Numbered from the stretch's first letter, positions 481 to 5,912 are shown. The stretch is 10,802 bases of DNA from a virus (IMGVR_UViG_2698536392_000023:1-10802), one strand, 5' to 3'. Notes: generated by a model not told the origin, from the letters alone. Program-made: numbers and translations.

Positions 481-491
481 GTCCATAAGAA

Positions 492-511
492 AGCCCCTCC
501 GGAGAGGGGCT
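492..511. other. 8-bp perfect inverted repeat AGCCCCTC-CGGA-GAGGGGCT; with the 452-480 hairpin forms a back-to-back hairpin pair
   Basis: Arms 492-499 and 504-511 are exact reverse complements; on the minus strand it is followed by TTCTTAT. Confidence 0.45.
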
Positions 512-707
512 GGAGAGTGGCGCTATGTGCCATTGCATGGTGCCGGGTGCCTCCCGGTGAATTCAGTACCAGCACCTGAATCCGCGATTATCCCATATAC
601 CTACTCGCTGATTGCCCCTCCGCACAGGGGGATTCACCATGCCAGTTTCTTTTAACAAACTCCCCGCAAACCAGACAACAGTCAACCGCCTGAATTGTGA
701 GACATTT

Positions 708-747: not shown

Positions 748-824
748 TGGCGCGTTGTACTGGATTCGAACCAGTGACCGATTGCTTAGAAGGCAATTGC
801 TCTGTCCGGCTGAGCTAACAACGC
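748..824 (-). tRNA. tRNA-Arg, anticodon UCU (reads AGA)
   Basis: Reverse complement GCGTTGTTAGCTCAGCCGGACAGAGCAATTGCCTTCTAAGCAATCGGTCACTGGTTCGAATCCAGTACAACGCGCCA folds as a cloverleaf: perfect 7-bp acceptor stem, GCTC/GAGC D-stem, anticodon loop CTTCTAA, T-loop TTCGAAT, encoded CCA. Confidence 0.85.
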
Positions 825-837
825 ATGATGCATATAA

Positions 838-914
838 TGGACCGCCATCGGGGACTTGAACCCCGCGCAGCCAGCTTCGAAGGCTGGCGCTCTTTCCTGA
901 TGAGCTAATGGCGG
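838..914 (-). tRNA. tRNA-Arg, anticodon UCG (reads CGA)
   Basis: Reverse complement CCGCCATTAGCTCATCAGGAAAGAGCGCCAGCCTTCGAAGCTGGCTGCGCGGGGTTCAAGTCCCCGATGGCGGTCCA: 7-bp acceptor stem CCGCCAT/ATGGCGG, anticodon loop CTTCGAA, T-loop TTCAAGT, encoded CCA. The 5' nucleotide is C, which is unusual. Confidence 0.75.
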
Positions 915-921
915 TATGTGA

Positions 922-997
922 TGGTGGACCTTGCTGGATTTGAACCAGCGGCCTGGCGATTATGAGTCGCTCGCTCTCACCACTGAGCTAAAGGGCC
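922..997 (-). tRNA. ileZ: tRNA with anticodon CAU; body resembles the Ile2 (lysidine, ileX/ileZ-type) class rather than Met
   Basis: Reverse complement GGCCCTTTAGCTCAGTGGTGAGAGCGAGCGACTCATAATCGCCAGGCCGCTGGTTCAAATCCAGCAAGGTCCACCA; anticodon loop CTCATAA, T-loop TTCAAAT, encoded CCA. Acceptor position 3-70 is a C/T mismatch. Ile2 versus Met isotype is from recalled similarity and phage context. Confidence 0.75.
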
Positions 998-2345: not shown

Positions 2346-2873
2346 TTACCCGAGCACGCCGGTTGCAAAGGCGTGATCAAGAAAACGAAAAATTAAATCA
2401 ACCTGGGAACCATGCTTTTCTTCGAACGCCAGTGGATCCGCATGAAGCTCGTTGTGATGCTCCCGACACAGCGGTAGCGTGAAAATATCGTGGGATTTTG
2501 TTCCCATTCCGCCCTGACCATGACCAATCAGATGATGAGGATCGTCCGCTGGCTTACCACAACACGCACACGGCTGTGTCTTTACCCAGCGTGTGTATTT
2601 CTCATTTACCCAGCGGCGACGTTTAGGTCGTTTCATGAAGGATTCCGGAGACTCCGGATCAACGGCAATGCTGACCACCGTCTTTTCCTGTGGTGGGTTC
2701 TGTTGCTGGTGGGTGTGAGGTGGTAGCGCAATATTTTTTGTGCGCTGCTTCAGTATGCTGGTGGCGGTCTGTTCTCCCGGTATGATGTCGCTTTCACGGT
2801 ATACGGAGCGGATTTTTTCCGCCGGTAATCCCAGAGAACAACGCGCTACTGCCTCAGGTAGTGCATCCACCAC
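2346..2873 (-). CDS. HNH-like zinc-finger protein, DUF968/YdfU-like C-terminal region (175 aa as drawn; start uncertain, may be the 3' part of a frameshifted longer gene)
   Basis: Motif CACCGKPADDPHHLIGHGQGGMGTKSHDIFTLPLCREHHNELH. ORF begins with GTG and has no recognisable SD; the same frame stays open upstream to 2954; 28-nt overlap with the upstream ORF. Confidence 0.55.
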   Translation of the reverse strand: MVDALPEAVARCSLGLPAEKIRSVYRESDIIPGEQTATSILKQRTKNIALPPHTHQQQNPPQEKTVVSIAVDPESPESFMKRPKRRRWVNEKYTRWVKTQPCACCGKPADDPHHLIGHGQGGMGTKSHDIFTLPLCREHHNELHADPLAFEEKHGSQVDLIFRFLDHAFATGVLG

Positions 2874-3448
2874 CTGATTGCAGGCCGCCCACAGGATAAT
2901 TCGGCCAGCGATAACTCCCTCTCCTGCGTGCCGCTTATTGCGTGACGGATGACGTCAATCATCCAGGCAACCAGATTCTGCTGAGCAAGTTGATCGAGTG
3001 ATTCTGATGTCTGGTCGCGCAGCTGGTTGTCACAGTGCCAGCACAACACCATCGCGCCGGTACCGTAACGGTGAATGACTGTTTCGCTGTGATGATAATC
3101 GCCGTGTGGCCACTGGCAGGATTTCACGTGACGTAATAACCAGTCAGACAGTGCACCAGCGCCGCCAGCTGCACGAATCACCCGCTCATCGCTGAAAAAT
3201 GGCAGCAGTGATTTATCTTCCGCCAGCGGCTGGCGAACAGTAGGAACCGCTCCAGATGGCAGCGCCCGCATGTTTTTCGGTTCCGGCTCCACCAGTATTC
3301 TGCCGTTATGGAATGCTGACATTGATTCACGGCCTGGCTTAACGATAACCAGACCGAGTTCCGGTACCAGAACAGGTCGAAGTAATACCCGCACATTACC
3401 TCCAGACGCGCTGACGGTAGCAGGCATGTGTCCGTGGCAGATGTGCAC
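2846..3448 (-). CDS. HNH-like motif protein (about 200 aa as drawn; start codon uncertain)
   Basis: Motif CQWPHGDYHHSETVIHRYGTGAMVLCWHCDNQL. ORF-track start is a GTG; first ATG is at 3427; overlaps neighbouring ORFs at both ends. Confidence 0.5.
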   Translation of the reverse strand: MHICHGHMPATVSASGGNVRVLLRPVLVPELGLVIVKPGRESMSAFHNGRILVEPEPKNMRALPSGAVPTVRQPLAEDKSLLPFFSDERVIRAAGGAGALSDWLLRHVKSCQWPHGDYHHSETVIHRYGTGAMVLCWHCDNQLRDQTSESLDQLAQQNLVAWMIDVIRHAISGTQERELSLAELSCGRPAIRWWMHYLRQ

Positions 3449-3668
3449 GAACAGGAAGATATACAGAAACGGTCCAGGTCAGACGATCAGCGTTCAGACT
3501 CCGCTCCACACGGACACCGCGACGCAGATACGCCTCTTGAGGCATATCTGCCTCATCGATCGTACAGAACAGATAGTGAAACCAGCCATACTGAGGCGCA
3601 CGAAAACGCCTCCCCTGCTTAATTTCCAGGTCGGCTTCAGAATTGTGGGATTTTATGTGTTGTGTCAT
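3396..3668 (-). CDS. Hypothetical protein, 90 aa
   Basis: ATG at 3668 with GGAGAA SD 6 nt upstream; the C-terminal 18 codons overlap the next ORF in another frame. Confidence 0.5.
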   Translation of the reverse strand: MTQHIKSHNSEADLEIKQGRRFRAPQYGWFHYLFCTIDEADMPQEAYLRRGVRVERSLNADRLTWTVSVYLPVRAHLPRTHACYRQRVWR

Positions 3669-3717
3669 CGGATTCTCCGGTGACAGCAGGTGTCAGTTGT
3701 TCAGGCTGACTGCGCGA

Positions 3718-3746
3718 ATTGTAAGGCAATACGCCGGAATGTACAA
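3718..3746 (-). promoter_or_regulatory. Candidate sigma70 promoter for the downstream accessory operon
   Basis: Minus-strand TTGTAC (plus 3741-3746), 17-nt spacer, TACAAT (plus 3718-3723). Confidence 0.4.
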
Positions 3747-3771
3747 ACAGAAAACCCGTCAGTAAGACGGG
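3745..3771 (-). terminator. Intrinsic terminator of the YgiW-like moron
   Basis: Minus-strand CCCGTC-TTACT-GACGGG followed by TTTTCTGTTT, beginning 19 nt after the stop codon at 3790. Confidence 0.7.
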
Positions 3772-3789
3772 CTTAACAAGCAGGGGCGG

Positions 3790-4134
3790 TTACTTTAATA
3801 ATTTCAGTGCCTTTACATCAACTTCAACACTGCTCAGGTCTTTATCAATTTCACCCTCAATTCTTACTTTGTCTTTCGGAGAAACATTCTGCCCGGCCCA
3901 TACGCTGTCATCGATATCCGTGACAATTGTCCCGCTATTATCACGAAACTCATAACGTTCATCACCCACTTTTTTAACGATGCTCCCTTCAAGGATAACC
4001 CATGCATCATCCTTCAGTTCTTTTGCCTGCGCTACTGTTGAACGCTCTGCTTCAGGCCCTTGGAAACCGCCCTGCTGTGCAAAAACGCCAAAAGACACAC
4101 CGGAAATAAGTGCTGCAATCAATACCTTTTTCAT
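3790..4134 (-). CDS. YgiW/YdeI (BOF, bacterial OB-fold) family secreted protein with signal peptide (114 aa); prophage moron
   Basis: N-terminal signal peptide MKKVLIAALISGVSFGVFA; family-typical motifs QGGFQGP, DDAWV, SGTI, VSPKDKV, DKD..SVE.DVK; SD AGAGGG upstream; own terminator. Confidence 0.8.
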   Translation of the reverse strand: MKKVLIAALISGVSFGVFAQQGGFQGPEAERSTVAQAKELKDDAWVILEGSIVKKVGDERYEFRDNSGTIVTDIDDSVWAGQNVSPKDKVRIEGEIDKDLSSVEVDVKALKLLK

Positions 4135-4253
4135 TCATAGCCCTCTTTCAGAGATGAACATTCAAACAGCATTTTCAGTATGATAAAGCGCGGGTGCGTT
4201 GAGGATGCCTGACACATCAGAGGTGGCGAGGGATTTCTCCCCCGCCAGGTCTC

Positions 4254-4409
4254 TTACTCCTCAGGTTCGTAAGCTGTGAAGACAGCGACCTCCGTCTGGC
4301 CGGTTCGGATTCGTACCTCGCAGAGGTCTTTCCTCGTTACCAGTGCCGTCACTATGACGGTAATACAGATGACGATCAGGGCGATTAACATCGCCTTTTG
4401 CTGCTTCAT
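4254..4409 (-). CDS. hokD: Hok/Gef-family type I toxin (51 aa), closest in my memory to HokD/RelF
   Basis: MKQQKAMLIALIVICITVIVTALVTRKDLCEVRIRTGQTEVAVFTAYEPEE; SD AAGGAG upstream of ATG at 4409. The ORF-track entry 4254..4466 is the same frame extended to an upstream ATG. Confidence 0.85.
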   Translation of the reverse strand: MKQQKAMLIALIVICITVIVTALVTRKDLCEVRIRTGQTEVAVFTAYEPEE

Positions 4410-4422
4410 AGCCTGCTTCTCC

Positions 4423-4451
4423 TTGCCTTTCGGCGCGTAAGAGGCTAACCT
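4423..4451 (+). promoter_or_regulatory. Candidate promoter for a sok-like antisense RNA
   Basis: Plus-strand TTGCCT (4423-4428), 17-nt spacer, TAACCT (4446-4451); predicted transcript runs antisense across the upstream in-frame ATG (4466) and its GAGG SD. Confidence 0.35.
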
Positions 4452-4584
4452 ACATGTGTCTAGCATGAAATTGGCCTCAGATTAATGTTAGGCGTCTTGC
4501 AGGACGCGTAATGTTAACTGGGGCTTTTCTCTGTCTGCCTTACGGTGGCATGCCCGAGGCAGACAGCCTCAAGCACCCGCAGCA

Positions 4585-4612
4585 ATTCTACTTAACTCTC
4601 GCTTTACCGCAA
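4585..4612 (-). promoter_or_regulatory. Candidate promoter of the hok mRNA
   Basis: Minus-strand TTGCGG (plus 4607-4612), 16-nt spacer, TAGAAT (plus 4585-4590); gives a leader of about 170 nt, typical for hok mRNAs. Confidence 0.4.
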
Positions 4613-4624
4613 ACCGTTTTTACC

Positions 4625-4646
4625 CGATATGGGAATTCCCATATCG
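4625..4646. repeat. 22-bp perfect palindrome CGATATGGGAATTCCCATATCG
   Basis: Exact reverse-complement symmetry; lies between the stop of the 34-aa ORF (4655) and the candidate hok -35. Confidence 0.9.
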
Positions 4647-4654
4647 TAATGAAT

Positions 4655-4759
4655 TCAGTTCCCTAGTCGATCCATCAAAAACACAACCAGGCAGTAAACG
4701 CCCACAACAGCAATAACAGCCAGCGCACCTTCCATTGCCAGTGAAATATCATCCGACAT
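4655..4759 (-). CDS. Small hydrophobic protein, 34 aa (MSDDISLAMEGALAVIAVVGVYCLVVFLMDRLGN), predicted single transmembrane helix
   Basis: ATG at 4759 with strong SD AAAGGAGGG 4-5 nt upstream; absent from the ORF track because it is under 60 aa. Confidence 0.5.
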   Translation of the reverse strand: MSDDISLAMEGALAVIAVVGVYCLVVFLMDRLGN

Positions 4760-4794
4760 ATTCCCTCCTTTGGTGTTAATCCCGGCGAACGTTT

Positions 4795-4878
4795 TTACCC
4801 CCACCGACAAATAACATATACTAAAAAATCAATAGCTATAGCAACGCCTGTAATTGCAAAGGCTTCAGGCCAGATCAT
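4795..4878 (-). CDS. Small hydrophobic protein, 27 aa (MIWPEAFAITGVAIAIDFLVYVICRWG)
   Basis: ATG at 4878 overlaps the stop of the DUF551 ORF (ATGA); SD GGAGG 8-12 nt upstream. Confidence 0.45.
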   Translation of the reverse strand: MIWPEAFAITGVAIAIDFLVYVICRWG

Positions 4879-5460
4879 TGGCGCACCTCCTGCGGCGGTT
4901 CTGGTAGCGGCATCCAGTCGGTTACATTGCGGCTCTGTGTTTCGAAAAATTCATCACCATTACGGACTACATCAAAAAACTCACCGTCTCGATATTGCGC
5001 ATAAAGAACGAATGCGCCATCACATAAAATAATTACGTGCTGACCATCATCCGGCATTCGCTCACTACAGCTTATCCAATCATCCAGAGTTACCGGATAG
5101 TTGGTTGACGTTTCCGAGATTTCCCGAAAATTATTGGTTGACGAACCCTTTTTTTTCCCGAAAGTTTCCAGCCTGAAGCATGGCGGCGCTGTCTGGCGGG
5201 GCAGCATATAGCGGCACGTATATTTCCGGTTCCTTATCAGCACCGGGTTGCTCTTCCAGTGAGAATGTCTTTCCGGTAAATCGATTCATATAAAGCACGG
5301 GCTCTGCTTCCAGCGAAGCCTGAGCAACAAGGGCCAGTGCTAAATCCAACTCAATTGCCTCGAGAGAATTTTTGAATGCTGTCTGTTTTACTGCAAATTT
5401 CATCGCCTTTACATTTTCACTAACATGACTGATTAACTGCTCTTTTGTAAAAGTGGTCAT
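4875..5460 (-). pseudogene. DUF551-domain phage protein split into two frames at an A8 (plus-strand T8) tract
   Basis: Frame A 5460..5131 (ATG at 5460, SD AAGGAG) ends ...REKKGFVNQ; frame B 5243..4875 reads ...FGKKKGSS... and carries the DUF551-like C-terminus (DDWISCSERMPDDG...WMPLPEPP). The frames switch at the T8 run 5149-5156. Confidence 0.6.
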
Positions 5461-5516
5461 CTCATTCTCCTTTGATGCGAATGCCAGCGACAATTGAAGC
5501 CTGATAGCTAATTCAC

Positions 5517-5912
5517 TCACAATACCGCCTCCTGAAAATTGCCCTGATAGAACGCCAGTACACGCAGCATAACTTCACTCTTCCGGCACTCGCCACAGAT
5601 TATGTTCTGTTGTCTGTCGTAGCGGCGTATTTCTCCGTCTGGTAACTTTCGAATCAATGTCTGGTCGGTTGTTTTCTCCGCTGCCTTACGCCATACGCGA
5701 TACACCTGTTCTGATGTAAAAACACCGTATTTACCGGGCATGTATAAATCGCCGCAAGCCAGTACATCCACAAGGCAACGTCTGACTGAATGCCAGCCTG
5801 CTCCCGTCGCTCTCTCCAGTTGTGATATCGTCATGCGTTCATTTTTGCGTACCAGCCCGATAATTCGGGCCTTCAGTTCTTCACGCTGTTCGTGTGTAAA
5901 AGGTTTCGCCAT
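5517..5912 (-). CDS. Hypothetical phage protein, 131 aa, possible winged-helix fold
   Basis: ATG at 5912 with GGAGG SD 7 nt upstream; segment TISQLERATGAGWHSVRRCL looks HTH-like. Confidence 0.6.
   Translation of the reverse strand: MAKPFTHEQREELKARIIGLVRKNERMTISQLERATGAGWHSVRRCLVDVLACGDLYMPGKYGVFTSEQVYRVWRKAAEKTTDQTLIRKLPDGEIRRYDRQQNIICGECRKSEVMLRVLAFYQGNFQEAVL

Follow-up and report, generated by a model that had tools for sequence, protein, structure and literature searches.

Shiga-toxin phage 933W carries the closest described relative of the locus studied here, hokW-sokW, in an annotation reportedly made by Plunkett et al. in 1999. Its GenBank record (AF125520) lists mokW, hokW and the antisense gene sokW, and over a stretch of 551 bases that includes hok it agrees with our locus at 92.8% identity. 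Takada et al. (2021, PMC8621323) studied the corresponding locus in Sakai prophage Sp5. They reported that HokW is toxic and that cells are protected by sokW when it is transcribed from its own promoter, that a mutation of the sokW -10 abolishes this protection, that sokW RNA vanishes and HokW appears when Sp5 is induced, and that phage release falls by half once the locus is deleted. In the hok/sok system of plasmid R1, a terminal stem-loop shields the truncated hok mRNA from 3' exonucleases, and mutations in it destabilise the RNA (PMC9841398). The native chromosomal copies hokA, hokB and hokC were tested earlier and gave no post-segregational killing; the HokD coding sequence was toxic when expressed as a control, and the enrichment of Hok in prophages has been documented (bioRxiv 10.1101/2025.08.07.668861).

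We analysed a stretch of viral DNA of 10,802 nucleotides (IMGVR_UViG_2698536392_000023:1-10802), referred to below as the window. Positions 4612-4192 of the window very probably hold a complete hok/mok/sok type I toxin-antitoxin cassette with an R1-type mechanism. By sequence, the cassette combines a HokD-type toxin with a regulatory region of the hokW-sokW type. The locus is a routine allele of an already known system, annotated in 933W and characterised in 2021. The cassette may be functional, given its homology to the tested hokW-sokW; its transcription, the instability of Sok, its toxicity and its biological role we infer from the same analogy. Table 1 lists the features of the cassette and of its downstream flank.

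Table 1. Features of the cassette and its downstream flank, in window coordinates (promoters and RNA elements are predicted)
Feature	Position	Strand	Details
hok/mok promoter	4612-4585	-	-35 TTGCGG (4612-4607), 16-nt spacer, -10 TAGAAT (4590-4585)
tac (translational activator element)	4567-4578	-	GGGTGCTTGAGG; 5' end of the hok mRNA; RF01794 position 1 at 4578
5' leader hairpin	4531-4566	-	predicted folds and compensatory changes
ucb / anti-SD	4520-4527	-	AAAGCCCC; pairs predicted by folding
mok leader ORF	4466-4254	-	70 aa; in frame with hok, common stop codon
dcb	4441-4445	-	GCCTC; pairs with mok RBS GAGGC; Sok-target hairpin 4478-4441 in the open form
hok toxin gene	4409-4254	-	51 aa, HokD type; RBS AGGAG at 4423-4419
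3' stem-loop	4246-4225	-	GGCGGGGGA-GAAA-TCCCTCGCC; 9 pairs including one G.U
fbi (fold-back inhibitory element)	4204-4192	-	CCTCAACGCACCC; complementary to tac, one bulged C
Sok promoter	4423-4451	+	-35 TTGCCT (4423-4428), 17-nt spacer, -10 TAACCT (4446-4451)
Sok RNA gene	4458-4528	+	71 nt; 933W sokW annotation mapped onto the window
YgiW/YdeI-family (BOF) gene, bof	4134-3790	-	Pfam BOF, E-value 2.3e-33
Terminator-like hairpin	3774-3752	-	first one after hok, behind bof

For comparison, we scanned one genome per species and found 60 related loci (in Escherichia, Shigella, Kluyvera, Photorhabdus, Pantoea, Citrobacter and others). The MAFFT alignment comprises 42 distinct full-length loci. Among them are the window, 933W and a locus from an IncF plasmid whose Hok is identical to that of R1, and R1 was compared through this IncF locus. 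When a 551-nt query across the locus was compared with 5426 complete E. coli genomes, 806 carried most of it.

Toxin gene, leader and promoters

The Hok protein of the window matches the whole profile of Pfam PF01848 (HOK_GEF; 83.2 bits, E-value 9.7e-24), and PGAP labels the gene hokD in genome copies that are 100% identical. The hexamer TACGAA at the Tyr47 codon of hok (window 4266-4271) is invariant in 42/42 loci. The initial annotation had pointed to an in-frame upstream ATG with a Shine-Dalgarno sequence at 4466; this start is present, and it coincides with the mokW annotation of 933W mapped onto the window. Its RBS (GAGGC, 4478-4474) lies 8 nt upstream of the ATG, 19 mok codons come ahead of the hok ATG and the frame is open through to the hok stop; Mok in the window is Hok with an N-terminal extension. 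The mok ATG is nearly invariant (at least 90% conserved in the 42 aligned loci). The frame of mok relative to hok varies: most of the 42 loci have it in frame, about nine at +1 and four at +2, and the four +2 ORFs stop near the hok start. This variation rules out Mok as a conserved protein, and it fits a role in which translation of mok matters and the Mok protein does not; only mok translation up to the hok start is expected to matter (PMC9841398).

The leader measures 169 nt from 4578 to the hok ATG, in line with the roughly 170 nt described initially. Rfam RF01794 (the 'sok' family, whose model represents the hok leader in the sense orientation; gathering score 59) matches 4578-4404 over the whole model (positions 1-157 of 157) with 116.9 bits and an E-value of 1e-26.

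G4578 is the likely start of the hok mRNA, and lies 6 nt from the -10 hexamer. In essentially all 42 loci, a -10-like hexamer (TAGAAT, TATAAT, TATATT or TACAAT) is found at a fixed distance from a conserved GGGYGCTT, while the DNA farther upstream varies between groups. Since the spacing is fixed despite the diverging upstream DNA, it supports both the hok promoter and a start at 4578, and the minus-strand promoter candidate first noted at 4585-4612 occupies the same place as its counterparts in the 42 related loci. Its -35 is weak and shows no conservation across loci. A consensus scan for promoters and terminators (4000-4800 and 3300-4260) reported neither the hok nor the Sok promoter because both fall under its threshold of 9/12: their hexamers score 8/12 and 7/12, values that alone are not beyond chance. 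The support for the two promoters therefore rests on the comparative position data.

Close to the hok promoter, on its upstream side, the minus strand has two tiny hydrophobic ORFs, one at 4655-4759 (34 aa, MSDDISLAMEGALAVIAVVGVYCLVVFLMDRLGN; annotated as hypothetical, with no Pfam match) and one at 4795-4878 (27 aa, MIWPEAFAITGVAIAIDFLVYVICRWG).

On the opposite strand, the mapped sokW annotation places the Sok start at G4458, 6 nt after the -10, which agrees with the earlier proposal of an antisense RNA that begins near 4458 and covers the upstream start. The antisense promoter proposed at 4423-4451 has the same hexamers as sokW, and the mutagenic primer used against the sokW -10 alters exactly the TAACCT that the window has in common with sokW (PMC8621323). 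The Sok -35 overlaps the hok RBS on the other strand, and the pair TTG(A)CC...TA(A/T)(T/C)CT is conserved across the 42 loci. According to the predicted fold (-34.3 kcal/mol, z -6.2 versus shuffles), about 15 nt at the 5' end of Sok form a single-stranded tail, which is complementary to the mok start and the target loop. A long hairpin comes next, then a U-run (ending in GGGGCUUUU). The Sok segment is more stable as antisense than as sense RNA in 42/42 loci (means of -23.2 versus -13.2 kcal/mol).

In a small sample of 11 closely related loci, window 4455-4475 (hok mRNA 104-124, comprising the mok start and the Sok 5' tail) has a mean pairwise difference of about 0.32 and is among the most variable parts of the locus, both of its flanks being nearly invariant. 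This variability would fit a divergence of Sok-target specificity between copies.

Predicted pairings of the hok mRNA

The initial annotation had called for structure prediction of the tac/fbi pairing. The two elements pair in the minimum-energy fold of the full-length mRNA (4578-4188; z -7.0 versus shuffles), where positions 1-12 lie on fbi with 12 pairs and ucb pairs with the mok RBS (closed form); the tac-fbi duplex is predicted at -21.5 to -24.3 kcal/mol. When the mRNA is cut after the 3' hairpin (to 4221; z -6.0), tac shifts onto ucb. The fold of the first 140 nt contains the mok RBS/dcb target hairpin, and in the fold of a 40-nt nascent RNA tac pairs with the 5' arm region in a local metastable hairpin. 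The predicted folds appear to reproduce the nascent, the closed full-length and the open truncated states described for R1 (PMC9841398).

The tac-fbi pairing also covaries in the 42 loci. Position 4 of tac and its fbi partner are U and A in 28 loci and C and G in 12, further tac-fbi pairs vary on both sides, and pairing extends to 91.6% of the tac-fbi cells. When the partner columns are shifted by 1-3 positions, whole-structure pairing in the 42 loci falls from 87.5% to 39-49%. A fixed register for the distal half of fbi was rejected: MAFFT misaligns the E. coli and Photorhabdus types there, and the per-sequence duplex predictions are better evidence. In the 5' hairpin, the pair G15-C46 of the window is A-U in 933W, and helix 2 has four pairs changed on both sides. 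The ucb columns and the core tac-ucb pairs are invariant across the 42 loci; the core pairs of the RBS/dcb helix are kept in 40-42 of the 42, with an outer stem that varies on both sides. The ucb-RBS, tac-ucb and RBS/dcb pairings are all predicted by folding, and because their core pairs never vary, covariation is uninformative for tac-ucb and for the core of RBS/dcb.

The 3' hairpin with its GAAA loop is found in all folds, with 96.2% of its cells paired and three pairs changed on both sides in the 42 loci. This 9-bp GNRA stem (4225-4246) had been likened initially to the 3' fold-back element. The stem is there, but the fold-back element is another segment: in every related locus the best complement of tac corresponds to 4204-4192, 21 nt downstream of the GAAA hairpin, which rules out the hairpin as fbi. 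The GAAA hairpin corresponds instead to the terminal stem-loop of R1 and would, by analogy, close the 3' end of the hok mRNA after processing (truncated form).

Put together on the R1 model, the cassette would work as follows. The weak promoter (-10 TAGAAT) would give a stable mRNA starting at 4578, in which tac would be held first by the local hairpin of the nascent RNA and then by fbi in the full-length RNA, with ucb covering the mok RBS; neither translation nor Sok binding would take place in this state. Slow trimming of the 3' end back to the 4246-4225 hairpin would let tac pair with ucb, and the mok RBS would then move into the target hairpin with dcb. The open mRNA would be bound by the unstable 71-nt Sok and destroyed; once Sok is exhausted, it would be translated through mok into hok, and the 51-aa Hok peptide would damage the inner membrane. 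As for the biological role, it is most likely the one indicated by Sp5, in which the loss of Sok on induction would let Hok assist lysis, with prophage retention or phage exclusion as possible alternatives.

The bof gene and the prophage setting

The bof gene starts 57 nt after fbi, both in the window and in 933W. From fbi to the bof ATG, the scan found no terminator-like or promoter-like site on the minus strand, and the first terminator-like hairpin after hok lies at 3774-3752. In K-12 hokD and most of the other loci that we looked at, a terminator-like hairpin plus a T-run follows within about 45 nt of fbi. One reading of this difference is that the BOF gene has replaced the terminator in a partly disabled variant, which would make no discrete mRNA ending at fbi, would have lost the fold-back lock and would be left with control by Sok only or with none. 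We give this reading hardly any credence, since fbi is fully conserved, has kept its complementarity to tac and can pair with tac from an internal position as well. Moreover, the 933W/Sp5 locus is equally terminator-less, yet it works and shorter hokW RNAs are seen, and the hok-bof junction is stably maintained (in 550 of the 5426 complete E. coli genomes).

The window and 933W have in common an 880-bp block (4622-3743, 94.9% identity). Its upstream edge (4622) lies 10 nt upstream of the hok -35, and its downstream edge (3743) lies just past the 3774-3752 hairpin. In view of these edges, and of the lack of a signal between fbi and the bof ATG, hok and bof may form one mobile transcription unit. 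The block is co-oriented with an early operon in both phages: in the window with the genes running from replication to Q, and in 933W with what would be the pL/int operon once the genome is circularised. There is a suggestion here of read-through on induction interfering with Sok transcription. In a fuller version, which we consider unlikely, the block would be a single promoter-to-terminator unit with fbi internal, activation of the toxin mRNA would be tied to cleavage or decay of the hok-bof transcript, and read-through on induction would meet the Sok promoter head-on and shut it off. If true, the head-on read-through would account for the disappearance of sokW that Sp5 is reported to show on induction.

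The hok-bof spacer contains a promoter-like site on the plus strand (4155-4184; TGAACA, 18 nt, TATGAT, 9/12) that points toward the 3' end of hok and is probably a chance match. The gene that follows bof (3668-3396) was tried as a homologue of K-12 rem, as a test of same-slot orthology with Qin, and rejected, with no similarity found (E-value 18).

Window positions 4150-4700 (the region searched) are 100% identical to the chromosomes of E. coli 90-3040, 2013C-3492 and 2012C-4227, and the window is a lambda-like prophage of a Shiga-toxin-type E. coli. Along the minus strand of the window, the annotated copy has the repressor region, replication genes, DUF1627/DUF977/DUF551, hokD, the YgiW/YdeI-family gene, DUF968, rusA, the antiterminator and three tRNAs, which places the cassette between the replication genes and the Q antiterminator.

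Downstream of the Q-like antiterminator come first the three tRNA genes (window 751-997, minus strand; Ile, Arg and Arg according to the identical genome copy) and then a match to the STnc100 prophage sRNA family over its full length (RF02076; 138 bits, window 481-671, minus strand). A tRNA trio at such a place is typical for Shiga-toxin-type lambda-like phages.

The DUF968 (YdfU-like) and DUF551 genes (window 2346-3448 and 4875-5520, minus strand) carry frameshifts in the identical genome copy, and the integrase of that copy is partial. With several genes frameshifted, the prophage is probably decaying or defective, and the induction-linked role of hok/sok may for this reason be moot in this strain. 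The state of the prophage also bears on whether the cassette is intact but silent, with a promoter too weak, mRNA processing too limited or a peptide too inactive for killing, and would then persist only as a hitch-hiker in a decaying prophage. For example, full Hok toxicity might need A-to-I editing by TadA that converts the Tyr47 codon to Cys, and the TACG motif at Tyr47 is invariant; the weak hok -35 points in the same direction as the frameshifted genes and the partial integrase. Even so, we find a silent cassette quite improbable. None of the regulatory elements has changed in comparison with hokW-sokW, which is functional, and the compensatory substitutions in the helices indicate that selection still acts on the RNA structure. 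Expression of the HokD coding sequence is toxic (bioRxiv 10.1101/2025.08.07.668861), and endogenous HokW is made from a single-copy prophage and affects lysis (PMC8621323).

Comparison with K-12 hokD, plasmid R1 and 933W

The hokD gene of K-12 (relF, in the cryptic prophage Qin) encodes a toxin that differs from that of the window at 1 of 51 residues. The DNA homology between the two is confined to window 4423-4186 (97.9%), from the hok RBS to just past fbi. In K-12, relB-relE replace the promoter, tac, ucb, the mok start and the Sok gene, and relE abuts the hok RBS directly upstream; this bears out the remark in the initial annotation that the K-12 copy lacks such regulatory elements. K-12 hokD retains fbi and a terminator after it, and has no BOF gene. 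A truncated remnant of the hokD/relF type is ruled out for the window, where the promoter, tac, ucb, the mok start and the Sok gene are all kept. The prophage neighbourhood is the same: downstream in the window there is a DUF968 protein 84% identical to K-12 YdfU, followed by a Q-like gene. Based on this likeness, the window represents the intact form of the same prophage slot as in Qin. Genome pipelines annotate the toxin as 'hokD' but nothing of mok, Sok or the RNA switch, so the label here hides a complete cassette, unlike that of the truncated K-12 namesake. The common full-length copies are the ones to use for studying the role of prophage hok/sok in lysis timing, retention or exclusion.

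Alignment with R1 hok/sok and with chromosomal hok loci, as proposed at the outset, shows that the window keeps both the elements and their order. R1 and the window have, in the same order, the -10, tac, the 5' hairpin, ucb, the Sok terminator hairpin, the mok RBS and ATG, dcb, the Sok promoter over the hok RBS, hok, the 3' hairpin and fbi. In both, 19 mok codons precede hok, and the predicted closed and open folds of the window match the R1 model. More widely, the leader elements are conserved in the 42-locus alignment and the hok frame of the window is intact (a 51-aa ORF). The proteins are only distantly similar to those of R1 (HokW versus Hok, 44%; PMC8621323). The Sok hairpin is longer in the window (71 versus about 54 nt in R1 over the aligned segment), and tac reads GGGUGCUU in the window versus GGCGCUU in R1, with matching changes in fbi. 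The R1 locus is on a plasmid and has a terminator after fbi, whereas the window locus is in a prophage and has none. With bof directly behind fbi and no terminator in between, the locus would depart slightly from the plasmid R1 model.

The 933W locus is closer. Over 4622-4135 its alignment with the window has no gaps but for two indels of one base each, both in the 5' hairpin loop, which allows a direct transfer of the 933W annotation. The two differ by 31 substitutions in 390 nt, none of which (0/31) falls in tac, ucb, the mok and hok RBSs, dcb, fbi or the -35 and -10 of Sok. Six of the 31 differences fall in the Sok 5' tail and target loop, and because of these changes in the recognition segment the specificity of Sok may differ from that of sokW. 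The C-terminus of Hok is of the HokD type in the window (…FTAYEPEE) versus …FVDYESEK in HokW, and residue 16 is Ile versus Leu. The positions in the phage differ as well, with the window locus between the replication genes and Q, and the 933W locus beyond the tail genes, next to attR. In both the window and 933W, mok is in frame with hok, Sok is 71 nt long and fbi is followed by no terminator.
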